This document shows, piece after piece, positions 18,254-63,871 of a DNA stretch of 64,000 nt (position 1 is its first letter; each line of letters starts with the position of its first letter). The DNA comes from a virus: IMG/VR virus record IMGVR_UViG_3300034101_005931, positions 22,259 through 86,258 of that record; one strand, written 5' to 3'. Position numbers and translations under genes: made by a program. The notes below the pieces were generated by a model that saw only the letters and a program-made list of their open reading frames with translations, was not told the DNA's origin and did no database searches.

Positions 18254-18323
18254 ATGAATATTTATTAAACAGTTGCTATTTTTATAAATATCTCTATACT
18301 TACATTAAGTTCTTTAAAAATTT

Positions 18324-18776
18324 GGGGGTGTACTGGTTTCGACCTGAAACAGAAACTAAAAACGCATGTAGAGGTTGGTCAGCTGGCCTCTTAAAAAGCA
18401 GACCGAAAAATTAAGAGCAGATAATACTGACTCCATCTTGGCTGAAGCCGAGTACATATTCAACAACGCTTCCGAGTTTCTCGGAGAGGTTGAAGAAGAG
18501 TATCTCTTAGCAGCTTAAGGTCCTTTAACTCAGACCCTCTAAGAGTTAATTGATAACAGAGGAAGTTAGATTGTTGGTAGTTCTAATGTAACAACAAAAT
18601 ATCAACCGTATATAGATTGCGATAATGTCTATAGGCAGACTAAAAACTCGGTTAGTGTCACCAAGCAGCCTAAAGTCTTCGTTACCGTATGGTGGCTGAA
18701 ATGCTGAAGATACTAAAACATGTAGACCTTTTAGTCTATGGATTCAGGGACAGGGGTTCAACTCCCCTCATCTCCA
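18324..18776 (+). ncRNA. ssrA: tmRNA; tag ADNTDSILAEAEYIFNNASEFLGEVEEEYLLAA
   Basis: 5' GGGGGTGTACTGGTTTCGAC; 3' GACAGGGGTTCAACTCCCCTCATCTCCA; G3:U70; tag ORF 18417-18518 ending LAA. Confidence 0.95.
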
Positions 18777-18787
18777 CTTTTTAACTA

Positions 18788-26266: not shown

Positions 26267-26840
26267 TTGGGTGTTTTATCGCAAATTGGACCATATCAGT
26301 TGCGTCTAACATGGCATCTAACTGACGGATATGCCCATTTAAGGGTTACATATAACGCATTTGTCAGTTATCAGAACACCTAACCTGTTGTAGTCTGAGT
26401 TTTTTAGTCACTATCGGACCATGGCTTTGTTCTTACTCAGCATAACCATTTCGCTCTATATTTTGGACCTCTGTTGAGGCTTATTCACAGTGGAACCATC
26501 TTAGATATCTCTAAGAAAGGAGGTAGAGTTGCATACCTTGTGTTAAGGTGATACGTTTTTATCGGGACGTCAAACACCATACCTTACCCGCATGTAGAAG
26601 CCAGGGCAAGTCACCCCTGCTTAGCCTAGATACCGACTCAACCCTCTCTAGGACTTCTTATATAGATCAGAGCTTATGACGCTGTTATTCTGATCTATGT
26701 CTTACAGATCCATCCTCATTTAATGCCGGTGCATGACTATGATGCGTTGGCCCGGATGGACTGCAGTTATTATTGAGCTAGGATTTGCCTTCCTTTGAGA
26801 GACTTATTTTAACGCATCGTCTTACTCAGTCTCAGCTCAA
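26267..26840 (-). ncRNA. large (~575 nt) structured ncRNA, family unassigned
   Basis: ORF-free, GC-richer island with many helices and a pseudoknot; own promoter and BoxA-like leader. Confidence 0.75.
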
Positions 26841-27077
26841 AAGGTTGTTAATTTTTCAAAGATCGTTTTTGATTATTTATAAAGTATATATTCTTTCTTA
26901 AGGAACTGCAATATTATTTTCTAGGAACGTAACTTTATAGTTTTGCTCTTCTTTCGGATAACAGTTGCGATATTTTTTAATATATGCTATAACTTCTTCC
27001 CATGTATTAAAAGGCGATAACATGACATCATACCAATAACCAGTAGAGGCAATCATTCTTTCAATTTTATACATGTT

Positions 27078-50356: not shown

Positions 50357-51792
50357 TTGATAGGGAATAATTAATCCCGAAATAGTATGGGCGTTATAAA
50401 GACATATACTCGGATCCGGAATACTAATATACTAGGAAATACCCCGACATTTGGTTTAATTTTTATTCTCGCTCTTCTCTTACCAGGTTGCAATTCAGAG
50501 ACTCTTTCTCAGAACGCTAAGCATTATCAGACTCGTGCAGTCCAAGTTATGCATGTTACAAGAGATCAGAGTTTCGGAGATGAGAATAACAATTATTATA
50601 AGCTTTATCATTACTGGAGAGAAGAGAATGCTGAGGAACGGCAACAGGCCTATTACCAGAAGTGCCTCAGAGGCCTGGAGAATCATAAACCCAAACAACG
50701 ATTATCCCCGGGCAGAGCTAATAGCCCCGTAGGAGGATCTCCACCCCCTTCTCCGAGAACCTCGCCGCAGCGCTTAATCGGTGACGTTAATATCCAGGAG
50801 TGGGGTGTTCCTACATCACAATCAGCTCTACCTATAGGTTCTTTGTAATCTCTGATACTATAGTAATATAGGAACCTACTACCTCTATCTACTATAATGT
50901 AATATAACTTTACCCGTCGGGTGTTCATGGACTACGGGGTTTGGTTGGCGACCAAGGAACTGGCCTATCCACTCTGGTTCCTCTATACTATAGATCTTAT
51001 GGCAGATATTCAATATAGTCCTATTGTAGCGGAAGTCGAGGCTCTGGTAGCCGGGCTTACGGAACTTCGGAACGAGAACACGTTGCTTAAAGCTCGTGTG
51101 CTCGAGCTGGAACGGAAAATCTTTAATCTTCCGGAAGACGTCTCTATGGGCCGAGCTCGCTGCTGCGGTTAGGTTCCTAATTTCTACTCCGGTACACATT
51201 TAAGGTTCCGGAACACACGGAGAGTATAGTCTAGAGTTCCTAGACTGTAGTCTTCTTTTGTTTTTGTTCCGGAACTAATACTCTAGTCTAGGCTTGCTAG
51301 ATAGAGGTTCCTATTTTTAAGGGTAGATGCTTTCAAGAGGAACGGCAAGAAGGAACCTGAACTCAGAACCAATACTAAGACTCCGGTCTTCTAGTAGAGT
51401 AGGGTGTGCTAACTAACCTTCGGATTGGTGTCTCCTGTTCGCCCTGCTTGTCTCTTTTAGGATCGTTCGAGGCTCTCCGATCTCTTATTCTGCTATCATT
51501 ATACGGGAACCCTATAGGTAGCTCAAGCCTTGTTTTGTCGTTGCGTTCCGACTCCGATTCCTCTACTATTATGGGTGATGAATAAGACATTCAAAGAGTT
51601 CAAACAAATGGATGCACAAGAGATGGAGGAGTTCTTCCGTCTGGCTGCATATTACTTCCAAGATAATGCAGAGGATCTGCCGAACTTACCGGCTCTGGAA
51701 ATTGCTGGCAAACTGATTGATTGCTATAGCTATATGAAAGAACGTCTGGGTAATTGAGTTGCCGTTCCTTTAAAGTTCCGATATTCTTATAG

Positions 51793-52125
51793 ATGATGAA
51801 GATTAAACCTACTGATAAAGTCGAAGTTAAAGTTAAGGGAGAGGGATATGATCGCTACGAAAGCGGAGGCCTCTTCAATAAGACCTACAAAGGTACCTGG
51901 GAAAAGGTTCTGACTAAAATCTCTGAAAACCATTCCTACGGAACCCCTGTAGGAACTGATGAAGATGGAGAGACTGCTACCTGTGAAGATGTTCTTCAAT
52001 ATATACAGGAATGCAATGGTGATGGTTGTGATTACATTTTCCACTTCGAAGTAAAGAAGGATGGAAAGAGCTGGTGGGTCATCGATGATGAACCGATGGA
52101 TGAAGAAGATGTTGACTGCGATTAA
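51793..52125 (+). CDS. acidic early protein
   Basis: Own GTTCC promoter; NGDGCDYI motif. Confidence 0.7.
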   Translation: MMKIKPTDKVEVKVKGEGYDRYESGGLFNKTYKGTWEKVLTKISENHSYGTPVGTDEDGETATCEDVLQYIQECNGDGCDYIFHFEVKKDGKSWWVIDDEPMDEEDVDCD

Positions 52126-52147
52126 GAGTTCCGATATTATTAGAACA

Positions 52148-52348
52148 ATGAAGATTGACGGAAAAATTACAGGTGCTGTTTTTCGTAACAGCGAAGTGGA
52201 AGCTGGTATCTCTTACACCGGCAATGAGGGTGTGGTGGAGATTAAGCTCAAGTCCGATTTGGACTCTAACTCTTCCTATACCTACGTCTTGTCGCATTCC
52301 TGCGCTAAGCGGTTGGTTGAGCAGATTCGTCTAGCTCTAGACTTTTAA
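52148..52348 (+). CDS. early hypothetical protein
   Basis: Own GTTCC promoter. Confidence 0.65.
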   Translation: MKIDGKITGAVFRNSEVEAGISYTGNEGVVEIKLKSDLDSNSSYTYVLSHSCAKRLVEQIRLALDF

Positions 52349-52353
52349 TCATT

Positions 52354-52590
52354 ATGACATATACACATCAAGAGGCCCTAGACCTCTTTAAACGTCAGGG
52401 TGAAAGGGAGCGTGACATCATTCGAAGGATTGCTTCCCGGAGACTGGTCTGGCAGGGATACAATGAGATCGCCTCGGCTGATGTTGATCGTGAAATTTGC
52501 AATATCTGCAACGAGTATGAGGGTGCGTTTTCTGAGATCATGTATGAGTATCTCGAAGACTTCCTTCGGGGTTACAAATCGCTTTCCTAA
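52354..52590 (+). CDS. early hypothetical protein
   Basis: Packed ORF. Confidence 0.65.
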   Translation: MTYTHQEALDLFKRQGERERDIIRRIASRRLVWQGYNEIASADVDREICNICNEYEGAFSEIMYEYLEDFLRGYKSLS

Positions 52591-52592
52591 TC

Positions 52593-52826
52593 ATGGGCAC
52601 TACAATTACTGATCCCTCCCAGATCTTCGCATACGACGAGGATGGCAATACAATCATTCCCGGTGATATGGTCGTGTATCGCCGTAAGCTATACAAGGTT
52701 GAGTCGATGGAGCATGAGATCTCCAACGATGGGTACTACACCGAGAGGGTAGTCTTGCTTCTGGAACACTTTAAGACTGGCAAGCAAATAGTGGTCGAGG
52801 ATTTTAAGGTTGAGGTTCTAGGTTAG
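52593..52826 (+). CDS. early SH3-like protein
   Basis: DEDGNTIIPGDMV. Confidence 0.65.
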   Translation: MGTTITDPSQIFAYDEDGNTIIPGDMVVYRRKLYKVESMEHEISNDGYYTERVVLLLEHFKTGKQIVVEDFKVEVLG

Positions 52827-52846
52827 TTCCGGTACAATAATTGGTG

Positions 52847-53146
52847 ATGAATATGAAAATCGCAAACGTCAAGACGCACCGCATTGAAGGTCGTCGTCAA
52901 ACTGGTCACGCTTACTTCTTTATTAAGAATGAGTCAATCGTAGAGAATCTGCAGAATCGACGGAACCGTCCTACGAAAGAGTTCCGGAAGCTTTTGAATG
53001 AAGCTCTCTTCGGTCAGCTGGAATGTACTCCTCATCAGATCGGACGTATTACTTGGTCCCAGCGCTGTGGGTGTTCCTGTGGCTGTAGCCCTGGGTTCCG
53101 TATCGAAGGTTTTTACGGCAGAGATATTTTCATTGACGTTGAATAA
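52847..53146 (+). CDS. early protein (WSQRCGCSCGCSPGF motif)
   Basis: Own promoter; Cys cluster. Confidence 0.7.
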   Translation: MNMKIANVKTHRIEGRRQTGHAYFFIKNESIVENLQNRRNRPTKEFRKLLNEALFGQLECTPHQIGRITWSQRCGCSCGCSPGFRIEGFYGRDIFIDVE

Positions 53147-53352
53147 ACGTTCCGGTATTATTATCTGTGATGAATAAGAAAGAAACAATCTACGAAAACT
53201 ATCCCTTCTGGGATGCGTACAAAGCAGTCAAGAACGGAGAGTGGACCGAAGAGGAATTCCATCTCTGGGCTACAACGGTTTGGAATGATGGAGCGGACTC
53301 TTTCGTAGAAATGGGCTTGAACGAAGAATAAAGTTCCGGTACTATTAATATA

Positions 53353-53835
53353 ATGAACATCAAGAAAGAGCTTCAGCTCCTCAAAGACACAGGCAAACTC
53401 TCCACCCACCCGCATATCTTCTGTGTGAAGTGTGAGGGGAAAACTACCGCGTTTGGATCTAATCTTCAAGGTAAGATTGAACGTGCAGGAGGATTAGAAC
53501 CTCTTCTCTCTACCTTCGAGTGTCGTGAATGCCGCACCGCTGGTAAGCCCAAGAAGGCTCCTAAAGCTCCCAAGCGTAATAAAAAGGCCACGCGCGAATA
53601 CCGCAAGGTTGAATTGCTGAAGAACCTTCCGAAGATGAACTTTGTTCGTCCTGAGCCGGTGGTCTTAATTAACAACCCCGAGTATGCTGCGATTGTAACC
53701 GCACATGCTTGTCAGCGCCCGGACGTCTTCCTGGACTCAAACCGCTCGTGCGACTTCTGCTCACTCTACGAAGTGTGTAAGGCTCCGAATCGGAAGCTGA
53801 GCTCACAGGGCTGGCAGATAAAGGTTGCCGCCTAA
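53353..53835 (+). CDS. early zinc-finger protein
   Basis: CVKC, CREC, CDFC..C; own promoter. Confidence 0.75.
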   Translation: MNIKKELQLLKDTGKLSTHPHIFCVKCEGKTTAFGSNLQGKIERAGGLEPLLSTFECRECRTAGKPKKAPKAPKRNKKATREYRKVELLKNLPKMNFVRPEPVVLINNPEYAAIVTAHACQRPDVFLDSNRSCDFCSLYEVCKAPNRKLSSQGWQIKVAA

Positions 53836-53861
53836 TAAGAGTTCCGATATACTGATAGGTG

Positions 53862-54074
53862 ATGAATAAGAAAAACAACGTCAAAAAGCAACTCGAAGTG
53901 ATCAACGTCCGCCTGGAGGTCCTGATCAACAAGTGGAACAAGCAGTACGACCAGAACATTCAGGAGCTGTTGCAGCTCTCGACTCTGCTGCAGAACCTGG
54001 AAACAGGCTCACTCGAAACGAATAAAGCGCTCTTGAAGCCTTCGAAGACTAACAAATTTCCGGGACTGTTTTAA
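53862..54074 (+). CDS. early coiled-coil protein
   Basis: Leaderless MNK start. Confidence 0.65.
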   Translation: MNKKNNVKKQLEVINVRLEVLINKWNKQYDQNIQELLQLSTLLQNLETGSLETNKALLKPSKTNKFPGLF

Positions 54075-54110
54075 GTTGCCGATCAATAACAGTTCCGATA
54101 TACTGTATAT

Positions 54111-54398
54111 ATGATTAAGACACCGAAAGCTAAAGAGTACGGCAAACGCATGCAGGTCATCTCCCACATGTACCTCAACAAGAACGCTAAGCTGTTCCGG
54201 AACACGCAGTGGGAGGAGCAGGATGTCAAGATGATTTTTGACGACGCACGCAATCTCTATCTCGTCGGATTGTATATGATCGAAGGAGATTTCGATGCTG
54301 CGATGGGGCTTGCCTCTGAGCTGGATACGCTCGTCCGGGATGAGATTCCGAACTCGGTCTGGAACTACCTCGAGAAGTTTACCATTGACCAGGAATAA
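54111..54398 (+). CDS. early hypothetical protein
   Basis: Own promoter; LDTLVRDEIP motif. Confidence 0.7.
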   Translation: MIKTPKAKEYGKRMQVISHMYLNKNAKLFRNTQWEEQDVKMIFDDARNLYLVGLYMIEGDFDAAMGLASELDTLVRDEIPNSVWNYLEKFTIDQE

Positions 54399-54423
54399 GG
54401 GTTCCGGTATAATGACTTTGATG
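54385..54423 (+). promoter_or_regulatory. type example of the early leaderless promoter
   Basis: TTGACC-aggaataaggGTTCCGG-TATAAT-gactttg-ATG. Confidence 0.85.
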
Positions 54424-54624
54424 AATAAGAAACACACTGTTAACGAGCTGGCTGACCTTCTGGTTAAGCTGGGCACGAAGAGAAATGGCACCGAGCATGG
54501 TCTGAACTACTGCTGGGCTTATGGTACCCTGACCGCTCTGTTCGATCAGGCACGTTTTAGAGACGCTCAAGAGATCGTCGATCGTAAGTTCGCTGAGGTT
54601 GAGAAGGAGCTTGCTGCTGCTTAA
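54421..54624 (+). CDS. early protein, paralog of 60696
   Basis: NYCWAYGTLTALFDQ; ends LAAA. Confidence 0.75.
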   Translation: MNKKHTVNELADLLVKLGTKRNGTEHGLNYCWAYGTLTALFDQARFRDAQEIVDRKFAEVEKELAAA

Positions 54625-54647
54625 TAGTTCCTGTAATATTATCTTTG

Positions 54648-54848
54648 ATGAATAAGAACAACAACAAAAAATTCCTGATGGACCTTCTGGCCTTTGTCAG
54701 GTTCATTCACAACAACCCGAACATGGACCTTCAGCGGAAGTACTCTGCGATCGTCTCCACGATCGGGCACGACATCAACGGCATCCTGGCTGAAGACCAG
54801 TTCTTCTCTCCGAGGGTGACTGGTTACTCCAACTCTGATCTGATCTAA
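54648..54848 (+). CDS. early hypothetical protein
   Basis: Leaderless MNK start. Confidence 0.7.
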   Translation: MNKNNNKKFLMDLLAFVRFIHNNPNMDLQRKYSAIVSTIGHDINGILAEDQFFSPRVTGYSNSDLI

Positions 54849-55210
54849 TATGAGACAGCAAACACCGACCCTCGTCGATCTAGCCAAGCGCCGCTCACTC
54901 GTCCCGGAAGCACCGCACCCTTATGTAGCAGGCTTTCTGGGTGCCTTTCTAGGACATCTCGAACGGACTGTACCAGGAGTTGAGGATGCAATTCGTAAAG
55001 AGATTGCTCGTCTCGAGAAGGAGAAGATCTAATGAAGACTACTAACGATGTCGTCCTTGAGCTCCTGGACAGGGATGCAGAGGCTGAGGAGCTTGAAGCT
55101 CTTGTAGCAGATATCAAAGCCATCCTCTACTCACCCTTTCAGCCAATCGACATGAAGATCACTAACTGCAAGCTGGCGATCGGAGAAGCTGGATACTAAG
55201 TAGCTTTCAT

Positions 55211-55294
55211 ACCCAGGTGGTGAAATGGCAAACACTGCGGACTTAAAATCCGCTGCCGATAGGCTTGTGGGTTCGAGTCCCACCCTGGGTACCA
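55211..55294 (+). tRNA. tRNA-Leu(TAA)
   Basis: gcgga-ctTAAaa-tccgc; variable arm; CCA. Confidence 0.93.
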
Positions 55295-55337
55295 AATAAC
55301 TTGACGATCAAATAAAGTTCCGCTATACTGATAAGTG

Positions 55338-55679
55338 ATGAATAAGAAAATCAAAATCAACGATCGGACCTCGAACTTCAACATGTCTTCTCTTCAAGGG
55401 TATGTCAAAACGACATATGCCCATCTCGTCGAGAAGCTGGGGGAGCCTGAGACCGACTTCGATAAATCGACCGCTCATTGGACTCTCGAAGCTCCAGATG
55501 GAACTGTTGCGACGATCTACGACTACAAAGAGTACACCACCCCTCTCGGTGAATACTATTGGCATGTCGGAGGTCATAACCGAACCAAAGCCCTGCTCTT
55601 GGTTGAGATCGCCACTGATGTTATTCCTATCACGGAACAAGCTCGTCAATGGAACCCTTATGGAGGAGGGCGCGACTAA
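55338..55679 (+). CDS. early phage protein
   Basis: SLQGY..LGEP..DK..W..ATIYDYK..WHVGG. Confidence 0.75.
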   Translation: MNKKIKINDRTSNFNMSSLQGYVKTTYAHLVEKLGEPETDFDKSTAHWTLEAPDGTVATIYDYKEYTTPLGEYYWHVGGHNRTKALLLVEIATDVIPITEQARQWNPYGGGRD

Positions 55680-55743
55680 TAGCAACGACCAACGATTAGC
55701 CCCGTATAGAGATACCAACACTTTTTTAGAATAAACTAACGCA

Positions 55744-55926
55744 ATGAACATGACATACTGTCAATTCGAAAACACCCTGCAGGATCTACGTCAGTGTAGG
55801 AATACGCTCCGGGAGGCCGGCTCATGGGAAGAACTAATCGAAGACAAGTCGGAGTATGAGATCCAAGCCTTGAAGGATATGCCCGGGGTGTTGGCTGAGA
55901 TGCTTCGCTATTATGACAACCTGTAA
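55744..55926 (+). CDS. early hypothetical protein
   Basis: MNMTYCQFENTLQDL motif. Confidence 0.7.
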   Translation: MNMTYCQFENTLQDLRQCRNTLREAGSWEELIEDKSEYEIQALKDMPGVLAEMLRYYDNL

Positions 55927-56174
55927 TATGAAAACCAACGTAACCATCTCGCGCGCGCTCCATGACCACCTGCTCGCGAGCGATCAAGCTTCGCTCCAGC
56001 TCCTTTTCAAGATCCACAAAACCAAATGGCATCTTAGTGGGGTTACTTTCTACAACGTTGGTGCGTGGTATCTGGAATGGATAGATGCAGAGCACAGACA
56101 TTTTCTTTCGCAGCAAGAGTGTAGGCGGCACCTTGTTGTGAGTCAAGTAGAGTAAACCGCCCTTATTCATCATC

Positions 56175-56219
56175 AAAAGACCCGAGACTGGCTTCTTGCT
56201 AGTCTCGGGTTCTTCTTTT
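56175..56219. terminator. bidirectional terminator-like hairpin
   Basis: acccgagactggc/gctagtctcgggt with A- and T-rich flanks. Confidence 0.75.
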
Positions 56220-56263
56220 ACTCGAGAGGATAGACTTAAGAATGAGACTTCATTCTTCTACCT

Positions 56264-56327
56264 GAGTACCCCCAGCTAACAAACCTTCGCTTCGTCAGCT
56301 GTTCGCCCTGATTTCTGGTCGAGGCTC
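56264..56327 (-). ncRNA. twin sRNA core, copy 1
   Basis: 56/64 identical to 60221-60284; own minus-strand GTTCC promoter at about 56351-56379. Confidence 0.7.
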
Positions 56328-56574
56328 ACCCTTTCCTTTATTCTGATATCATTATATCGGAACATGTTTAAGGCATCAACCTATTTCGCGGATAGGTGGA
56401 TGTTTTGCGTATTTTTAAACCTGTGAAGACCGAGACTTAAGTCTACCCCGAGCAGTATGAAAAGGGGAATAGTTCAAATCTCCCTTGAACTATTCACGAA
56501 AAACTACGGCTCCAGGAGAGCTAAGACCGCTTTCTTACTTGCTTATCTTTAAAGTTCCGCTATTATTATAGGTG

Positions 56575-56850
56575 ATGAATAAATCGAAAGACATTAAGCC
56601 GTTGCTCAAAATCAAAAAGCAATCTGATATCAAAAGCTTTAGCTGCTATAAAGAATTTGATGATGATCATCAGCGCTGCGCCTACTGCAAAATCAACGAC
56701 ATCAAAATCGAATTTTGGTGGTATGACGATTTGGCTTGCCTCTATTATTGGAAGGATTCGAAAAAGGCTTTTAAGGATCTCTTAAGCTGCATTGAGAATG
56801 AGGTCTATATGGCGAAAAATTACGAATTGGACTTCCCCGAAGACGTCTAA
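56575..56850 (+). CDS. early hypothetical protein
   Basis: Leaderless MNK start. Confidence 0.7.
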   Translation: MNKSKDIKPLLKIKKQSDIKSFSCYKEFDDDHQRCAYCKINDIKIEFWWYDDLACLYYWKDSKKAFKDLLSCIENEVYMAKNYELDFPEDV

Positions 56851-56892
56851 TTCATTTGCCGAATCATTAAAGTTCCGCTAATATTAAAAGTG

Positions 56893-57132
56893 ATGAATAA
56901 GAAAATCAAATACGGATTGAAAGTTAAAGGTGAAATTTTTGAAGTGAAGGATATGATGGATGAGTGTCCTTTTGAAGGAAGTGAGTTTGCTTATTTGGCA
57001 GACATTTCCCCTTCTGAAGATGTTGAAGGTGAGTTTGATATTTCCATTATTTCCGATAATGAGGGCTATACTCATTCAACTGCTGATTTTGAGGAGTATG
57101 GAATTACGGATGTGGAAGTAGTTGAGCTCTAA
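56893..57132 (+). CDS. very acidic early protein
   Basis: Leaderless MNK start; Asp/Glu-rich. Confidence 0.7.
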   Translation: MNKKIKYGLKVKGEIFEVKDMMDECPFEGSEFAYLADISPSEDVEGEFDISIISDNEGYTHSTADFEEYGITDVEVVEL

Positions 57133-57158
57133 TTAAAGTTCCGATATCATTATAGGTG

Positions 57159-57368
57159 ATGAATAAAGCATATATCATAATTGCAAATAGTGAATGGGGC
57201 GAAGAGCGAATTATGTCCGTCTATAACGATCGCAAAATCGCTGAAAAGACGTGCGCTGAATTGCAAGAAAAAGGTTACGGAGATTGGGATGAGTTTCGGA
57301 TTGAAGATTGGCCCTTTAATGAAGAACTTTTTAGGGCTAATTTGGATGAAGTAGTTGACGAAGAATAA
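57159..57368 (+). CDS. acidic early protein
   Basis: Leaderless MNK start. Confidence 0.7.
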   Translation: MNKAYIIIANSEWGEERIMSVYNDRKIAEKTCAELQEKGYGDWDEFRIEDWPFNEELFRANLDEVVDEE

Positions 57369-57390
57369 TTGTTCCGCTAATATTATAGGT

Positions 57391-57654
57391 ATGATGAATA
57401 AAGAATTCAAATTGAAGATGGCGAAATATTTTGAGTCCGATTATGAGAATATGAAAGGAGAGGATGGAAGGATAGAAATTTTTAATAGTTATGGAGGTGT
57501 GGAGGAAGTGTTGAGTAAGAAGAAATATTTTTCTGAATTGAAGAAGGTGAATAGTTTTGAAGATTTGGAAGGATTTTGGGACTTTATTAGCGGAGGAAAT
57601 GCAATAAGTTTCGGATGTTTGATTGATGATATTTTGAAACAAAAGATTGCTTAA
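57391..57654 (+). CDS. early hypothetical protein
   Basis: Own promoter; (M)MNK start. Confidence 0.7.
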   Translation: MMNKEFKLKMAKYFESDYENMKGEDGRIEIFNSYGGVEEVLSKKKYFSELKKVNSFEDLEGFWDFISGGNAISFGCLIDDILKQKIA

Positions 57655-57877
57655 GCTTTTTAGTTCCGCTATACTGTTATCTGATGAATAAGAAAATTAC
57701 AATCACGCTCGAGTTGGACGCAATTGCAGTTGGTAAGATTGAGGCGGCTGCTGAAGGAGATATCGCTTCTCTTCTCGAGAGCGAGATAAACGAGAATCCA
57801 GACGCGTTTATTGAAATGATGGGGTACGATAATTGGTAGTTGACCTACCATTACAGTTCCGATATACTTAACGAGTA

Positions 57878-58072
57878 ATGAGAATCAAAATTACTAAAGG
57901 TTGTGAGGTTGAGTCTTGGTCAGGTCGTTATGACGGACCTCTTGTCAGGATCAAAAAAGGGGATGTGTTTGAGGTTGAGGATGAGGATGTTGATGATGAC
58001 AACTACTCTCATATTGGGGATGATGGGTATCCCAATTTGTGGATCCCAAAAGAGAATTGTGTTGTCCTTTAA
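57878..58072 (+). CDS. acidic SH3-like early protein
   Basis: Own promoter; IKKGDVFEV. Confidence 0.7.
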   Translation: MRIKITKGCEVESWSGRYDGPLVRIKKGDVFEVEDEDVDDDNYSHIGDDGYPNLWIPKENCVVL

Positions 58073-58418
58073 TTAAAGTTCCGCTATTATTAGAACAATG
58101 AAAGCACAACTGACCCAGTACGAATGTTTGAAGCTGATCCGTAAGCCGACTCTCGGCCGCGGTCCGGTCTTTAAAGACAAAACCAAATACAACCGCAAAC
58201 AAAAGCACAAAAGGAGCTGGTAATGAAAGAGATTGTTTACCTCAAGTCCGATAAGGACGTTGTAGATTTCATCGAGAAGAATAGAGCTCAGGCCCAGGCT
58301 GAGGCCGTAATGGGTGTCATGCTCTGGCTGTCTGCTGAGAGCATCATGGTAGAGGTTTGGAAGAATTAAACTTTTCCTTGCCGTTCCTGAGAGGTTCAAC
58401 CATAATCATTTTTGCAAT

Positions 58419-58757
58419 ATGAGTACCGCAACTGAAACAATGCCGAAGACGCGCAGCGTCAAGGCCAGCACGCCTGAGAAGGCGAAGAAGGAGACGACTC
58501 CCAAGCTCGTCTGTAACGTGACGGGTGTTGCCCGTTACACCAACGCAACCTACTTGGCTAACAAAGCCAAAGCTCGCAATACTAGCGTGCCAGCTCTTCT
58601 GGCCACGTACGTGAGCCGCCCTGTCGCGAAGCTGCTTCGTGAGGGTAAAGCTGTTGCTGAGATCCAAGGCATCTTGGGTGTCACCTACAACAGCCCGCTC
58701 GCCGATACCAGCGCTGAGGATATCCTCCGCTTGAACGGTAAGCAAAAGCGTAGCTAA
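58419..58757 (+). CDS. basic putative DNA-binding early protein
   Basis: KLVCNVTG..YL..KA..YVSR; paralog of 58794; terminator follows. Confidence 0.75.
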   Translation: MSTATETMPKTRSVKASTPEKAKKETTPKLVCNVTGVARYTNATYLANKAKARNTSVPALLATYVSRPVAKLLREGKAVAEIQGILGVTYNSPLADTSAEDILRLNGKQKRS

Positions 58758-58762
58758 ACTAT

Positions 58763-58791
58763 CCCCGGGGGCTTGTCCCCCGGGCCTCTTT
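58763..58791 (+). terminator. terminator-like hairpin
   Basis: cccggggg/cccccggg plus tcttt. Confidence 0.65.
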
Positions 58792-58793
58792 CC

Positions 58794-59096
58794 ATGGATA
58801 CAATTACTGAAACACCTAAACGTCGAGGACGTCCTCCCGGTACCGGCAACCCTAAGCTTAAGCTTCGATGCCTCATTACCAATAAGACACGTCCTTCCAA
58901 CATCAACTACTTGACTCGAAAGGCAGAGCGTTGTGGTGTTGATCTTGACACTGTCATCAACAACTACATCTCTAAAGAAGCTTTGCATCAGATCGTGGGT
59001 AGCCCGCAGTTCGATGATACAACCAAAGCGCTCTTACTCAAGCTGAACGGTGGTACCCGGACACGTACGAAGAAAGACCCGAGTCTTCAGTCTTAA
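58794..59096 (+). CDS. AT-hook-containing protein, paralog of 58419
   Basis: KRRGRPP; KLRCLITN..YL..KA..YISK. Confidence 0.7.
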   Translation: MDTITETPKRRGRPPGTGNPKLKLRCLITNKTRPSNINYLTRKAERCGVDLDTVINNYISKEALHQIVGSPQFDDTTKALLLKLNGGTRTRTKKDPSLQS

Positions 59097-59324
59097 AAAA
59101 TCCTGTTGCAGGCCTATTAGTGTTCCAATATACTGATAGGTGATGAATAAGAAATACATCCTCATTGACCTCTATACTGGCAAATCTGAACAGATCCCTA
59201 CTGAAGAGCTTAAAGAAGCTACTTGGGGAATGAAGGCCAAAAAAGGTGCTTTGAAGGTTTGGAAGGGTGAAGAGTATTTGGTAGTTGAGGTTCCTGAATA
59301 GAACCTCTACAATTTAAAAAGAAT

Positions 59325-60131
59325 TGGGCCTCGGCGAGACCGATCCGATTCACAGAGGAGCCATCCGGTCCCTTTAAGAAGCGCTCGAGAGCTTCACCGG
59401 ATAGATTTTCGTTGCAGTTCTTTTACAGTTCCGTTAGAATAAGTACAGATTTGAGAGAAGGTTCGCTACCAAGAAGGGTTGATCGCCGGAAAAGAGGTAG
59501 TGACGAAAGCGTCGGACCGTAATGGCAAGGCCTCATTCTCATCTTAAAATATCTCCGAGGTAATAGCCAGAAGGAGGGTCTGGCGCCCAAGCGGGGAGAA
59601 TAAAACCTCCAAGATTTCTTTGACAATTTGAGTGCGTGGCGAAAGCCGCGTTAGGGATAGTGCTAAAAAATAACTCGCCCATACAACTACACACCGACAG
59701 GATCAGGCGAAGGTCGGGGAAGCAAGGATCCGCGTTAGCACACGCACTTATTTTCTCTGCGGTCATTGAGGGGTCTGTAGCCCAGGATGGAGGTGATAGT
59801 CCACCGAAGACAGACAGCGACCTGAGCCGTAGACATTTTTTGACAGCGGTGTGGAAAGCCGTGGACACACAGAACCGAGATGTTCTTTGTCGACCAGAAC
59901 ATCCGTGCTTCCTGGGGCTGTTGGACTCTCCGGAGACCCGCCCAGAGCCAGAGTAACGCCTGGTCTGTCAAGACTCTCGAATTGGTTTCCGGTGATCCAG
60001 ACAGCTCTATATGCGAATAGGTGGCGCGGTGAGCTGATCAAAAAACCGGGTTGCTCGTTGCGAGAACAAGCGAGACGCTGTTTTGTTTGCGAAGTAGTGT
60101 CTCGATGTAGCTCTCAAACAAAATAGGAGAG
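59325..60131 (+). ncRNA. cluster of tandem structured RNA modules
   Basis: GC-rich, no credible ORF, self-closing stems separated by U/A-rich linkers; promoters near 59290 and 59412; BoxA-like site at 59615. Confidence 0.7.
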
Positions 60132-60220
60132 AGAAGGGGTGAAGGGGGTCTTAGATTGCTGTCTTAGCTTGACTGTGCATTAAGGTTCCGATAGACTGAT
60201 TGTACATTCGAAACAACGCC

Positions 60221-60284
60221 GAGCCTCGGGCGCACATCAGGGCTAACAGCGGACGACGCGAAGGTTTGTTAGCTGGGGGTACTC
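60221..60284 (+). ncRNA. twin sRNA core, copy 2
   Basis: 56/64 identical to the reverse complement of 56264-56327; own promoter TTGACT..GTTCCGA-TAGACT. Confidence 0.7.
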
Positions 60285-60359
60285 GTATAGAATACTTCAG
60301 TCTTGGGTCTGAGAAAGATTTTCATTGCCGTTAGCGAAGTGTTCCGCAATAATATACGT

Positions 60360-60671
60360 ATGATGAATAAAGCTGACACACTCAAAGCGCTGCAATCGAA
60401 ACTCTCTAGCGACACTCGCTGGGCTCAGCGCGCTCTCCTCGCGATCTTCCGCAATCAGACTGCCGACGAGCAGATCAACGCTGATGTAAAGCATCACAAT
60501 CAGATGGGCTTCCGCTGCATGGACTCCATCATCCTCACCAGCTTCGCCAACCAACTTCAGACTCGAGGCTCCCTTTCACCGAAACAGATGAGCATCGTCT
60601 TCCGTCTGATGCCCAAATACGCTCGTCAGCTGATGAAATTTTACGGCGACAAAATTCAGCTGGCGCTCTAA
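60360..60671 (+). CDS. early phage protein
   Basis: RALLAIFRNQTADEQ..HHNQMGF..D..LS.KQ..KYARQL. Confidence 0.8.
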   Translation: MMNKADTLKALQSKLSSDTRWAQRALLAIFRNQTADEQINADVKHHNQMGFRCMDSIILTSFANQLQTRGSLSPKQMSIVFRLMPKYARQLMKFYGDKIQLAL

Positions 60672-60695
60672 TAACAGTTCCGCTAATATATTTGT

Positions 60696-60908
60696 ATGAT
60701 TGATAAGAACGAAATCCGAACTGCCAACTACTTGTGCGACCTGGCGTTGCAGGTTGGTGCTAAGAAGCATGGAACGCACGCTGGTAACAACTACAGCTGG
60801 GCGCTGGGGGTCATGACTGCTCTCTTCGACCAGGTCCGTCATGGTGCAGACGCCCAGGCAGTGATCGACCGCAAGTGCGCTGAGCTCGAGAAAAATCTTG
60901 CTGCTTAA
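60696..60908 (+). CDS. early protein, paralog of 54421
   Basis: NYSWALGVMTALFDQ; ends LAA. Confidence 0.75.
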   Translation: MIDKNEIRTANYLCDLALQVGAKKHGTHAGNNYSWALGVMTALFDQVRHGADAQAVIDRKCAELEKNLAA

Positions 60909-60932
60909 TAACTGTTCCGCTAACATTTACGT

Positions 60933-61157
60933 ATGAATAAGAACACCTTCAAATTCGAAATCAGCTTCAATCTCAACACCGCGAAAGGCGAGAAGCTCGA
61001 TTGGCGCTCCATCCAAGACTTCCGCGATAGCCTCGAAGGCTTCGTCCGCTCCTGGAACGGTCATGATGGCTACTTCTACGCTTACGGGCCCGGGCACGAT
61101 ACGGATATCGACCCGACCGCAATTAAGGTCAAGCGGGTCAAGAAGCTTGCCCGCTAA
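60933..61157 (+). CDS. early hypothetical protein
   Basis: Leaderless MNK start. Confidence 0.7.
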   Translation: MNKNTFKFEISFNLNTAKGEKLDWRSIQDFRDSLEGFVRSWNGHDGYFYAYGPGHDTDIDPTAIKVKRVKKLAR

Positions 61158-61180
61158 TAAGAGTTCCGCTAATATTGTAT

Positions 61181-61441
61181 ATGATGAATAAGTTCAATAA
61201 AGAAGACTTCCGCAAGGAAGGTAAGTACCTGCTCTGGGGCCCGGAGCGTAAGTTCGTAGCACGCTTCAAGTATAGCGGCCCCTTCACGATGGCTAAGTTC
61301 CGCAAGGAGCTCATCGCTAACCACACCCCCGAGTCTTACTTCGAGGCTTACGACGCAGGCAAAGCGCCCCTCGAGATCCTCAAGGATAAGAACCCCGTCT
61401 GGTATCGCGACACGCTCGAGGCCTTCAAGAACCGCTTCTAA
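61181..61441 (+). CDS. early phage protein
   Basis: FVARFKY..F...LI.N.T.E.Y..APLEIL. Confidence 0.75.
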   Translation: MMNKFNKEDFRKEGKYLLWGPERKFVARFKYSGPFTMAKFRKELIANHTPESYFEAYDAGKAPLEILKDKNPVWYRDTLEAFKNRF

Positions 61442-61616
61442 GATTATGAGCATCAAAGTCACCGTTGAATCCAATTGGGTGGGCCCTAGAGAGCACTTCT
61501 TCGATGATTGGGGCAATGCTGAAGAGTTCGCCTTTGCTATGAGAGAGTGCCAATACAAGACGAAGGTCGAGGAAGTACTTGCCGGCGAATAAAGGTTCCG
61601 ATATACTTTAGACAAT

Positions 61617-61826
61617 ATGACAAAGACAGACCAACTCGTTAATGCTCTTCGTGAGCGCTTTGCCACCGACGCTTATCCCGTCACCCACCCTCATACCGAC
61701 TCTCTCGTGATGGGTTACTTGAAAGGTATGCTCGGGGTGATGGAGCACTCGAACGATAAGCTTCTGGACTGCATCGACTACCACCTGCAGGACACCCTCA
61801 AGTACAACGCTACGTACAAGATCTAG
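61617..61826 (+). CDS. early hypothetical protein
   Basis: Own promoter. Confidence 0.7.
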   Translation: MTKTDQLVNALRERFATDAYPVTHPHTDSLVMGYLKGMLGVMEHSNDKLLDCIDYHLQDTLKYNATYKI

Positions 61827-61862
61827 CTTGACCGGTCATTAGGGTTCCGGTACAATATTGGT

Positions 61863-62117
61863 ATGATGAGAAACGAAAAAGCGATACTGAAACTGAAAGC
61901 TCACCTCCATATGGTCTTTGGCCTGGCCAACGATCTGAACGGAGAGTACGGCCCGGCAGCCTCCCTCATGAAGATGTATGGTGAGGCCTTCAACCACATC
62001 ACCTGCGACCTGATGCCCCAGATGGGCATGACCGAGGATGAGATCGTCGATCTAGTCTCCTCGATGGACGAGCTCACTGACCCGAGCATCGTGCGTGCAG
62101 CCCTTCAAAGCGCCTAA
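61863..62117 (+). CDS. early hypothetical protein
   Basis: Own promoter. Confidence 0.7.
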   Translation: MMRNEKAILKLKAHLHMVFGLANDLNGEYGPAASLMKMYGEAFNHITCDLMPQMGMTEDEIVDLVSSMDELTDPSIVRAALQSA

Positions 62118-62118
62118 T

Positions 62119-62442
62119 ATGCAAACAGTACGCATCTTCTCACAAGACCTAGACGCTATCGATCGCTCGAAGGGTCAATGGGCCTTCACCTCGGACTGGA
62201 ATCTGCCTCGTAAGTACGCCTTCACCTACTTCACAAACAAGGATGGAGAGAAGGCGGCTGAAGAGTGCTATCGGATCACCAACGCTCCTTTCGAAGCTCT
62301 CAATGAGTTTGAGAAGCATATCGCCGAACTGTTCAGAGCTACCAAGACCATGAGCCTGTCCGTGGGTGATGTGGTGCGGGTGGGCGATGAGGTTGAGTAT
62401 CTCTGCGCCTCAGAAGGATGGCTCTCCCGGAGGTATGCATGA
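62119..62442 (+). CDS. YodL-like early protein
   Basis: SLSVGDVV..YLCASEGW. Confidence 0.65.
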   Translation: MQTVRIFSQDLDAIDRSKGQWAFTSDWNLPRKYAFTYFTNKDGEKAAEECYRITNAPFEALNEFEKHIAELFRATKTMSLSVGDVVRVGDEVEYLCASEGWLSRRYA

Positions 62443-62604
62443 GCCACGCCGACACCGTCTACATCAAGGATCTGGAAGAGCGGGTTGAGGAGCTTGAGGT
62501 GGCTATCGAGAAGGCTCTCGAGGCTGAGGACTTCGATGAAGCTCGCGAGATCCTAGAAGAAGTTAATTGACCATCTTTAAGAGTTCCGATATACTAATAG
62601 CATA

Positions 62605-62808
62605 ATGAATAACGGCAGACCCTTAACGCTCCAAGAGGAGGAGGACTTGTTTAAGCTCCAGCAATCGGCCGAGAAGATGTACTACGCTCTCAAGACGTTG
62701 CTTGAGTCTCGGAAGCTTAAATGTCTGCTCGAGGTTAATGACAAGATGGCTTTCGATCAAGCTAGCAAGGCCATCAAGCTGTACGAAGACAATCTCTTTC
62801 ATCTCTAA
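62605..62808 (+). CDS. early hypothetical protein
   Basis: Own promoter. Confidence 0.65.
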   Translation: MNNGRPLTLQEEEDLFKLQQSAEKMYYALKTLLESRKLKCLLEVNDKMAFDQASKAIKLYEDNLFHL

Positions 62809-62940
62809 TATGAACAACGAACACATTCAGGCTGCCCTTACTTGGGCTCTCACCTTCACAGGGCTGTTGCTGGTGGCTGCTCTGATCGGACTGGCCGGGG
62901 CGCTCTTCAAGACAGTATGCCATCTCTTCGACATCAATCT

Positions 62941-63147
62941 ATGATCATCAAACGCACATCAGAGTTCTCGGGCATCACGCGCGAGGTTAACCTCCCGGTC
63001 ACCGTCGAGCAGATGGGACGGTTTGAGTCCGGTCTTGAGACGCTCCAGGACATCTTCCCTCACCTCAATGTCGATGATCGTGAGTTCATCAAGACGGGCA
63101 TAACGGCAGAAGAATGGGATCAGATGTTCGCTGAGACCACTATCTAG
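62941..63147 (+). CDS. small phage protein
   Basis: QDIFPHL..DDREFIKTGITAEEW motif. Confidence 0.75.
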   Translation: MIIKRTSEFSGITREVNLPVTVEQMGRFESGLETLQDIFPHLNVDDREFIKTGITAEEWDQMFAETTI

Positions 63148-63871
63148 TTGACTGTCCTAATAAGTTCCTTTAATCTATACACAATATGAAAATCGCTCTC
63201 TTAATCCTTCTGGTCATTGCCATCTTAATCGCTGGCCCGCTCCTCACCATCTGGGCCCTCAACACGGTCTTCCCGGTCTTGAACATCCCCTTCAGCTTCT
63301 GGACGTGGCTGGCAGTGATTGTGCTCCAGCTCCAGCTGGTGTATCGCCCGTCCAAATAAGCTTGAGGTTCATTTACTGTTCCCTTAATATATAGGTATGA
63401 TGAATAAAGACGATTGGATGTTTGAAGTGATAGTGTATATGACAATTGGCCTCTTCATTTTTGTAGCCTTCATTAAGCCAGTTGTGGATGGCATCTATCA
63501 ATAAGACTCTTATGCGATTCTTATCACCTGCCATTAAAGCTCTCATCCTTATCACCCTCATCATCTTCATGGCTATTAGCCTCATCGCATTGCGCGATTG
63601 ATTCTTATGCAACAGAAACAAAAACAAAAACTGGTCAACAACCAAATCAACTCCATCCGTAAGGGCATCAAAGCTCTCCAACAGATGAAGAAGAGCGGGA
63701 TGTATATCGACAACCGTCAGAAGAGGGCTCTGTCCTTCATCACGGCTGAAGAGCTCGCCCCTCTTTGTTGGGACTAGTTAATGATTGGTTAAGTAGTACA
63801 AGTCCTTACTAGTTGTTATGGGTAAGGTTGTACTACGAGTGGATGGCTAGACATCTACATTGAAACATAAC

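Follow-up and report, generated by a model that had tools for sequence, protein, structure and literature searches.

The 1058 nucleotides (nt) between positions 59302 and 60359 of the window probably represent a BoxA-protected, untranslated early transcription unit of a phage, in which conserved 5′ and 3′ elements accompany a strain-variable RNA cargo; we put the probability of this reading at roughly 65%. The window is the whole 64,000-nt stretch of DNA analysed here, i.e., the final 64 kb of an 86-kb IMG/VR virus record with an estimated completeness of 39%, and its numbering is used throughout. An initial annotation made from the sequence alone had described seven self-closed RNA modules at 59325-60131 and proposed that they are released as decoys of host RNA-binding proteins. 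Our results partly confirmed the observation and partly supported its interpretation. The evidence for the present reading consists of the noncoding character of the stretch, its promoter, the covariation in modules 1, 2, 3 and the first part of module 7, the conservation and recurrence of the BoxA-like site, and the cassette-wise gain and loss of modules (coordinates in Table 1). New in this unit are helices tested in relatives, a conserved launcher followed by variable cargo, and RNA cassettes that are exchanged like gene cassettes; the boxA-led noncoding transcript and the PeSL-like cassette junctions are the parts of the design with known kin.

Coding potential was evaluated with a codon log-odds score trained on 25 neighbouring early genes, whose leave-one-out values had a mean of 0.285, a standard deviation of 0.09 and a minimum of 0.096. 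The results revealed no credible open reading frame (ORF) between the stop of a 53-amino-acid (aa) gene at 59301 and the start of a 103-aa gene at 60360. All eight ORFs in this gap scored from −0.44 to +0.02, lower than each of the 25 genes, which supports the noncoding reading of the initial annotation, and every 150-nt window in a six-frame scan of 59300-60275 stayed at or below 0.04. The three largest gap ORFs retrieved nothing from PHROG at E ≤ 0.1, and an alternative genetic code was dropped because the neighbouring genes read well in table 11. It is highly improbable that the gap holds decayed gene cassettes or unrecognised small-protein genes. Although it sits within an array of about 30 promoter-plus-small-gene cassettes with fast turnover, and although it has room for ORFs of 106 and 91 aa, these two ORFs score −0.21 and −0.27 against the real-gene minimum, begin with GTG and lie remote from every promoter. 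Furthermore, compensatory changes preserve the helices, the RNA of the gap is more conserved in its nucleotides than the adjacent gene, and the conserved core of module 2 is broken in frame by an indel.

All seven helices listed in the initial annotation were located where it had placed them. At least five of them contain a G-U pair, which on the opposite strand becomes an A-C mismatch, indicating that the plus strand is the RNA. Folding of the single sequences against dinucleotide shuffles gave Z-scores of −0.16, −0.13, −0.65, −2.28, −2.08, −0.33 and −2.77 for modules 1 to 7, and it appears to be the comparative evidence, rather than the folding energy, that lifts the structure above chance. 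The modules are, as described before, distinct structured units with A/U-rich linkers, and they are not repeats of one another: each of the seven units (U1-U7) matched only itself in the 86-kb record, so that they are not tandem repeats of the kind found in CRISPR arrays or type III antitoxin RNAs. No Rfam family was reached at the gathering level. The best results of an Rfam 15 scan of 59300-60200 were two microRNA (miRNA) models at 16-17 bits versus gathering scores of 82-86, a scan of six relatives returned a single chance miRNA match, and tRNA, tmRNA, 6S, RNase P, SRP, Y RNA and CRISPR repeats gave none at E ≤ 10 in the modules. Group I and group II introns, retrons and riboswitches were dropped in view of the lack of an Rfam match together with the reordering of modules among relatives.

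Relatives were retrieved through the protein encoded downstream of the gap (60360-60671, 103 aa), which has 111 homologues with 66-100% identity in metagenome protein sets. Used as a single query in viral contigs, this protein led to no confirmed locus; an alignment of 35 homologues (A1) was used to retrieve 10 viral and 80 metagenome loci. The noncoding stretch was then compared by blastn and nhmmer with 95 loci, to which the locus counts given for the modules below refer. Related loci carry labels beginning with L, G000 denotes the present phage sequence, and X14 and X22-X24 are public sequencing runs. Direct searches were negative: blastn of 59100-60400 and tblastn of a 798-aa neighbour protein each gave zero matches in 50,697 phage records, and five related viral records, one of them a complete relative of 211 kb, yielded nothing beyond 14-nt chance matches at the DNA level.

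The noncoding stretch belongs to an array of small cassettes with one promoter each that extends from about 51.5 kb to 63.4 kb. The early promoters have the form TTG(A/C)NN, about 11 nt and GTTCCGnTAnnnT, with an ATG a few bases on. Among 137 distinct early-type promoters of this phage and loci L021-L065, 123 are followed by an ATG within 14 nt; the start codon thus lies approximately at the expected transcription start, and the early genes appear to be leaderless. The remaining 14 promoters lack a near ATG; one of them leads into module 2 and seven into a family of twin small RNAs. At the promoter of the present unit, the RNA would start at about 59446-59448. Accordingly, modules 2-7 do lie behind an early promoter as the initial annotation had it, whereas module 1 does not, since it is situated upstream of the promoter in the tail of gene 59140-59301.

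Module 2 was found in four loci and starts 6-9 nt past the −10 hexamer in G000, L023, L026 and L027. Its outer helix, which joins the first bases of the transcript to bases about 90 nt further on, covaries. So does the tcgctacc/ggtagtga hairpin, which occurs in the variants ACC/GGT (G000), CTC/GAG (L023) and CCC/GGG (L026) and holds a 25-nt invariant purine-rich loop region. A GGUUC/GGACC helix is invariant, as are about 45 bases between the helices, including a purine-rich internal loop; the module also contains a GACG-AAAG-CGUC hairpin. RNAalifold on five sequences gave 28 pairs, 6 of them changed on both sides. The proportion of paired cells was 97.8%, compared with 91.7% after shuffling of the columns (the observed value was attained in 0 of 500), it fell to at most 44% when the partners were slid by 1-3 columns, and the covariation score was 0.257 versus 0.128 (0 of 500). 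Identity in L023 and L026 amounts to 92-95% for module 2 and, at the DNA level, to 79-82% for the protein gene beside it; one extra base within the conserved core of module 2 in L027 rules out a conserved reading frame. A covariance model of module 2 (R1) found only its five training copies in 281,671 bases, and exact-pattern scans for the core gave 0 matches in viral contigs and 0 in genome contigs.

The pseudoknot guessed for module 3 gained support from one independent relative. Module 3 was found in two loci, and the comparison comprises three sequences from two lineages, in which one pair of stem P2 is changed on both sides (G-C to U-A) and one G-U pair of stem P1 becomes A-U. The pairing of loop and tail, GGAGG/CCTCC in G000, is TGAGAG/CTCTCA at the same place in L027. 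Pairings as long arose in 103 of 5000 tail shuffles for the 5-bp pairing of G000 and in 3 of 5000 for the 6-bp pairing of L027.

The placement of module 2 also bears on an alternative in which the conserved elements are cis-regulatory furniture: module 2 (with module 3) would be a put-like antiterminator that cooperates with BoxA, the terminator or insulator hairpins would be module 1 and the long one of module 7, and modules 4-6 would be filler in between. Module 2 stands at +1 of an early promoter in all four lineages, and putL, an RNA of about 70 nt with two stems, likewise lies just downstream of PL (PMC9378689). However, there is no long downstream operon that would need antitermination, the next units own their promoters, and no link to known antiterminator RNAs was seen in sequence or Rfam. 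The stronger conservation of module 2 relative to the protein gene next to it fits a functional RNA and does not separate action in cis from action in trans. Considered together with the junction elements described below, this alternative is possible but unlikely.

Directly behind module 2 or module 3 in G000, L023 and L027, about 170 nt from the promoter, lies the BoxA-like site that had been noticed before. The boxA of the Escherichia coli rrn operons is UGCUCUUUA and its spacer ACAAUUUA, which joined read ugcucuuuaacaauuua (PMC2724277). The phage sequence AUUUCUUUGACAAUUUG at 59614-59630 equals this boxA-spacer at 12 of 17 positions and keeps CUUU and ACAAUUU. In L023 (CACUUCUUUAACAAUUUG), 13 consecutive bases plus an upstream CAC are those of E. 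coli, and in L027 the element reads GAUUUUUGACAAUUUGA. The site in G000 also matches a Legionella CRISPR boxA at 8 of 11 positions. A scan of the 86-kb record on both strands gave four occurrences of its core, TCTTT[GA]A[CA]AA; three are located in sense on the 5′ flank of noncoding RNA genes, namely the tmRNA gene (window 18310), the RNA at 26267-26840 (−) and the present unit, and the fourth is inside a gene. The sequence in front of the tmRNA gene, GTTCTTTAAAA, is identical to the boxA of the L. pneumophila Lens CRISPR array (11 of 11). Among at least 120 genome matches, the exact BoxA 17-mer was encountered 81 and 145 nt upstream of the 16S 5′ end in two gammaproteobacterial metagenome-assembled genomes. 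A literature text search for boxA variants by 11-mers gave primer matches only. The site is a candidate for NusB/NusE binding.

BoxA elements are reported ahead of long noncoding RNAs, namely 16S rRNA and CRISPR arrays, where untranslated arrays benefit from them (PMC7862264), and behind T7 early promoters (PMC3709561). With both arrangements in print, the description of the present unit as an undescribed system was too strong. The BoxA link offers a concrete, testable mechanism for keeping a ribosome-free phage transcript alive, and one phage has the element three times, each time leading an RNA: the tmRNA, the 575-nt RNA and the present unit. At the tmRNA front (18295-18330, plus strand), TATACT is followed by GTTCTTTAAAAATTTG and then by the tmRNA 5′ end, which places the BoxA-like element between promoter and tmRNA. 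The other stretch, about 575 nt without ORFs (26267-26880, minus strand), carries TCTTTGAAAA with the same BoxA-like core on its 5′ side at 26862.

Modules 4-6, the cargo, are present among the 95 loci in L021 only, with two substitutions; the small RNA behind module 7 is present in many. Further copies were seen in contigs of runs X14, X23 and X22, the last with the end of module 5 only. One of the L021 substitutions lies in a loop, and the other turns a G-C into a G-U pair in a possible local hairpin, a pairing drawn by eye that competes with the closing stem of the initial annotation. Module 6 had been considered tRNA-like, an assignment that gained no support: ARAGORN made no call there and no tRNA or clan match appeared in Rfam at E ≤ 10. 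At the position of modules 4-6, L023:362-450 and L027:183-400 carry inserts that are unrelated and measure about 75 and 170 nt. Right after the BoxA spacer, each insert opens with a helix strand whose partner stands at its end (GAGCTG/CAGCTC and GATAGCC/GGCTATC).

Comparison of the loci showed that modules are gained, lost and reordered independently, as the initial annotation had envisaged. In L023, module 7 is followed by promoter, module 2 and BoxA, then by a different stem-closed insert (75 nt), another copy of module 7 and the small RNA; in L026 the order is promoter, module 2 and small RNA; and in L027 it is promoter, module 2, module 3, 50 extra nt, BoxA, a different stem-closed insert of about 170 nt and the small hairpin of module 7. 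A DNA contig of run X14 joins 59617 to 59984 through 7 other letters, so that BoxA and modules 4-6 are absent there, and the same run also joins 60158 to 60308. An RNA-library contig of run X22 consists of 59798-59840, 219 unrelated letters and 60109-60167, which means that module 5 occurs without module 6. The joints at 59617, 59840, 59984, 60158-60167 and 60308 fall at borders drawn in the initial annotation; the first three are RNA linkers, and 60158-60167 and 60308 are promoter junction motifs. L021 is 96% identical to G000, with 55 of its 63 differences inside 60002-60168, and 99% identical over 59300-60000 (8 differences in 700 nt). The 167 nt of 60002-60168 aligned to L021:2160-2330 form a sharp mosaic whose flanks differ by about 1%, a pattern of allele replacement by recombination inside the noncoding array. 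Related phages exchange these RNA elements like cassettes. The initial observation largely holds. Since phages that are otherwise about 99% identical over the stretch differ in cargo, the cargo marks a site of fast selection and is a candidate starting point for the study of takeover or counter-defence based on RNA. RNA-library contigs cover 59349-59464, 59776-59926, 59798-59840, 60006-60213 and 60109-60310, which is a weak hint at transcription; the uncovered parts, contig ends and depths of these contigs carry no information on expression or processing.

Module 7 was found in 17 loci, and its organisation differs from the one first drawn. Instead of the proposed closing stem ctctc/gagag, the relatives conserve a small hairpin, a long hairpin and a G-rich/GTCTTAG block. 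In nine sequences of the small hairpin, 6 of 21 pairs are changed on both sides; among 12 distinct instances there are five helix variants, 11 of the 12 being fully paired, two positions that always change together, and a loop insert of 3-50 nt. The small hairpin also stands behind protein genes in L028, L032, L050 and L061. Together with module 2 and the module 3 pseudoknot, this GGTTYYCGRTGATCC hairpin brings the number of new RNA families with covariation to at least three, whose conservation surpasses that of the protein gene next to them. L030-L033 have module 7 in its second half only: their nhmmer matches start at position 59 of the unit, and the blastn alignment spans 60041-60193 with 80.5% identity. 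In 12 of 12 distinct instances, the G-rich/GTCTTAG block is followed by a promoter of the early type (GTTCC box, −10-like hexamer, variable −35), which leads either to a gene or to an RNA. The block may be a protein-binding or insulator site.

Module 1 was detected by nhmmer in 3 of the 95 loci. An alignment of four sequences (A6) gave 26 pairs, 4 of them changed on both sides, and the conserved hairpin terminates in AGAUUUUC, two bases ahead of the −35 hexamer at 59412. Module 1 is probably the 3′ tail of gene 59140-59301 and resembles the terminator half of a terminator/promoter junction. An A run lies ahead of its first hairpin (59321-59351), where a simple scan flags a minus-strand terminator (GGTCTCGCCGAGGCC then CAATTCTTTT); no minus-strand gene is near. 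The cis-regulatory alternative draws on these junction elements as well: a short U run ends the conserved hairpin of module 1 right at the −35, an early promoter follows the G-rich/GTCTTAG block whatever comes next, the second half of module 7 can occur alone, and PeSLs are small composite terminator/promoter sequences described at indel points of T4-like phages (PMC4122927). On the other side, none of the hairpins has a canonical U tract. Module 1 and module 7 in its 3′ half look more like terminator or insulator hairpins at the next early promoter, comparable to PeSLs, than like cargo RNAs.

Table 1. Positions of the elements in and around the noncoding stretch (window numbering)
Feature	Position	Strand	Basis or remarks
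Module 1	59321..59410	+	variable hairpin 59321-59351 and conserved interrupted hairpin 59355-59410
Early promoter without start codon behind	59412..59440	+	motif scan; −35 TTGCAG 59412-59417, GTTCC box 59428-59432, −10 TAGAAT 59435-59440
Module 2, ~98-nt RNA from the transcript 5′ end	59449..59546	+	several helices, covariation in 5 sequences
Module 3, 59-nt H-type pseudoknot	59552..59610	+	P1 59552-59557/59592-59597; P2 59566-59571/59579-59584; loop GGAGG 59573-59577/CCTCC 59606-59610
BoxA-like element and spacer TTCTTTGACAATTTGAG	59616..59632	+	likeness to E. coli rrn boxA-spacer; position kept in three lineages
Modules 4, 5, 6, stem-closed folds	59629-59750, 59756-59833, 59840-59971	+	strain-variable
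Module 7 first part, small hairpin GGTTYYCGRTGATCC ... AAAAAYCGRG	59984..60053	+	variable-size loop insert; covariation
Module 7 second part, long hairpin region (GAGACGC-TGTTTTGTTTG ... CAAACAAAA...)	60060..60135	+	single folds of 9 relatives
G-rich block and GTCTTAG-N6-GTCTTAG	60136..60168	+	abuts −35 of the next early promoter
Apparently leaderless small early gene of 53 aa, MMNKKY...	59140..59301	+	ORF list; promoter box 59122, then ATG; codon score in the range of genes; precedes the noncoding stretch
Next cassette (outside the finding), early promoter and ~107-nt small RNA	60169..60310	+	TTGACT 60169-60174, GTTCC box 60185; promoter through 60197

Based on these elements, the following course of events can be proposed. 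Host RNA polymerase would start at about 59447 at the phage early promoter, a promoter of the type that elsewhere directly fronts leaderless genes. The nascent RNA would fold first into module 2, 98 nt with several helices from +1, and then into the 59-nt pseudoknot of module 3, before the single-stranded BoxA-plus-spacer is exposed. BoxA most likely recruits host NusB/NusE (S10) together with NusA/NusG, as on rRNA operons and CRISPR arrays, and the ribosome-free transcript would in this way evade Rho and pass about 550 nt of hairpin-rich sequence. The cargo modules 4-6 would be transcribed behind BoxA, followed by the small hairpin, the long hairpin and the G-rich block at the next promoter. 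The A/U-rich single-stranded linkers are likely endonuclease sites at which the units may be freed as stable RNAs; release of stem-closed units at these linkers is plausible. Phages would swap the units by recombination at linkers and promoter junctions.

Several results weigh against this reading. The folding energy is within chance for four of the seven modules (1, 2, 3 and 6), that of module 6 being equal to shuffles (z −0.33). Few sequences enter each comparison (5, 3, 4 and 9-12), the alignments used for testing are those from which the structures had been deduced, and the 3′ strand of the small hairpin was located by a constrained pattern. Covariation was found for modules 1, 2, 3 and the first hairpin of module 7; modules 4-6, known in near-identical copies only, have no such support. 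At the BoxA-like site the canonical core GC (in GCUC; GCUCUUUA) is absent, the phage having UUUCUUUG. Among the 120 genome matches listed for the 17-mer, 118 are not beside a 16S gene, so the motif alone is not specific; the matches are scattered across phyla and point to no particular host. Nor is BoxA obligatory, given that module 2 of L026 leads straight into the twin small RNA without it; the X14 contig likewise has neither BoxA nor cargo. Finally, neither the ends of transcripts nor their strand or level can be read from assembled contigs, and DNA may be present in RNA libraries.

The decoy role proposed for the modules is neither supported nor excluded by our results. We consider its general form very unlikely, in which released modules, early in infection, act as mimics or sponges and titrate RNA-binding proteins of host defence or regulation. 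The early promoter that drives the unit, the conserved launcher with its strain-variable cargo, the exchange of cassettes at module borders and the invariant purine-rich loops of module 2, as expected of a protein or ligand site, would all fit such a role, but the modules resemble no host RNA family (E ≤ 10) and no partner protein has been identified. Somewhat bolder, and in our view still quite unlikely, is the idea that modules 2 and 3 and BoxA make the polymerase Rho-proof, that the interchangeable cargo consists of arms-race decoys or inhibitors of host RNA-binding proteins swapped as cassettes like the small early genes, and that module 2 represents a new class of polymerase- or protein-binding RNA.

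The BoxA-protected transcription unit that we favour shares features with several known systems. Like the rrn leader (boxB-boxA-boxC) and the boxA of CRISPR arrays, it combines a strong promoter, a BoxA-like element plus spacer whose sequence is similar in part, an untranslated transcript and a long structured RNA. Reminiscent of leader-trailer stems, a helix right after the spacer closes over the downstream RNA, its sequence being different yet complementary in G000, L023 and L027. In contrast to these systems, the phage products are not rRNA or crRNA and belong to no known family, the core GC of boxA is missing, and two conserved folds come before the element, which begins about 170 nt from the transcript start and would bind Nus factors. 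T7 A0-A3 and lambda nut resemble the unit in that a host-polymerase early promoter is followed by boxA (PMC3709561, PMC2724277); however, their boxA serves protein-coding early operons, and lambda adds boxB and the N protein, whereas the present unit serves no gene and has no known N-like protein. The put RNA of HK022 is also a folded RNA directly behind a phage early promoter, of about 70 nt as compared with about 98 nt for module 2. It acts on polymerase without Nus factors, whereas module 2 has at least three helices and is followed by BoxA. With PeSLs, the unit has in common hairpins that recur at cassette borders immediately ahead of early promoters (module 1; the long hairpin with the G-rich block), and small cassettes that are inserted, deleted or replaced between close relatives at junction motifs (PMC4122927, PMC2839356). 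PeSLs probably differ in phage group and motif sequence, and some of the cassettes here carry RNAs rather than ORFs. Phage early regions are usually read as lists of small host-takeover proteins; the same promoter cassettes carry RNAs too in this phage.

The DNA comes from a large, tRNA-rich freshwater phage. ARAGORN found 21 tRNA genes in the window, which also contains a tmRNA gene at 18324-18779 (Rfam, 121 bits; without an ARAGORN call) and genes for a class II ribonucleotide reductase and a carbamoyltransferase. Among cultured phages, the closest ribonucleotide reductase shows 49% identity and all are below 50%, suggesting that there is no close cultured phage. The stretch is contained in lake-water metagenome runs; in runs X22-X24 its word shares are small and indicate no habitat.

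Further observations concern the neighbouring cassettes. In the window (51500-63400) and in L021-L065, the ATG near the early promoters often lies within ATGATGAATAAG (MMNK). The small-RNA cassette at 60169-60310 is absent from L021 and from an X14 contig. Its family, the members of which have their own early promoters, is represented in the window by copies at 60204-60310 (+), 56245-56344 (−) and about 51362-51490 (−), and among relatives by many copies on either strand. In L024, the small RNA is 91% identical and the adjacent protein gene 78%. Upstream of the −35 of the minus-type copy, a conserved stretch (..CATCCACCTAT..) recurs at L027:440-520, L023:760-840 and window 56380-56460 (−).

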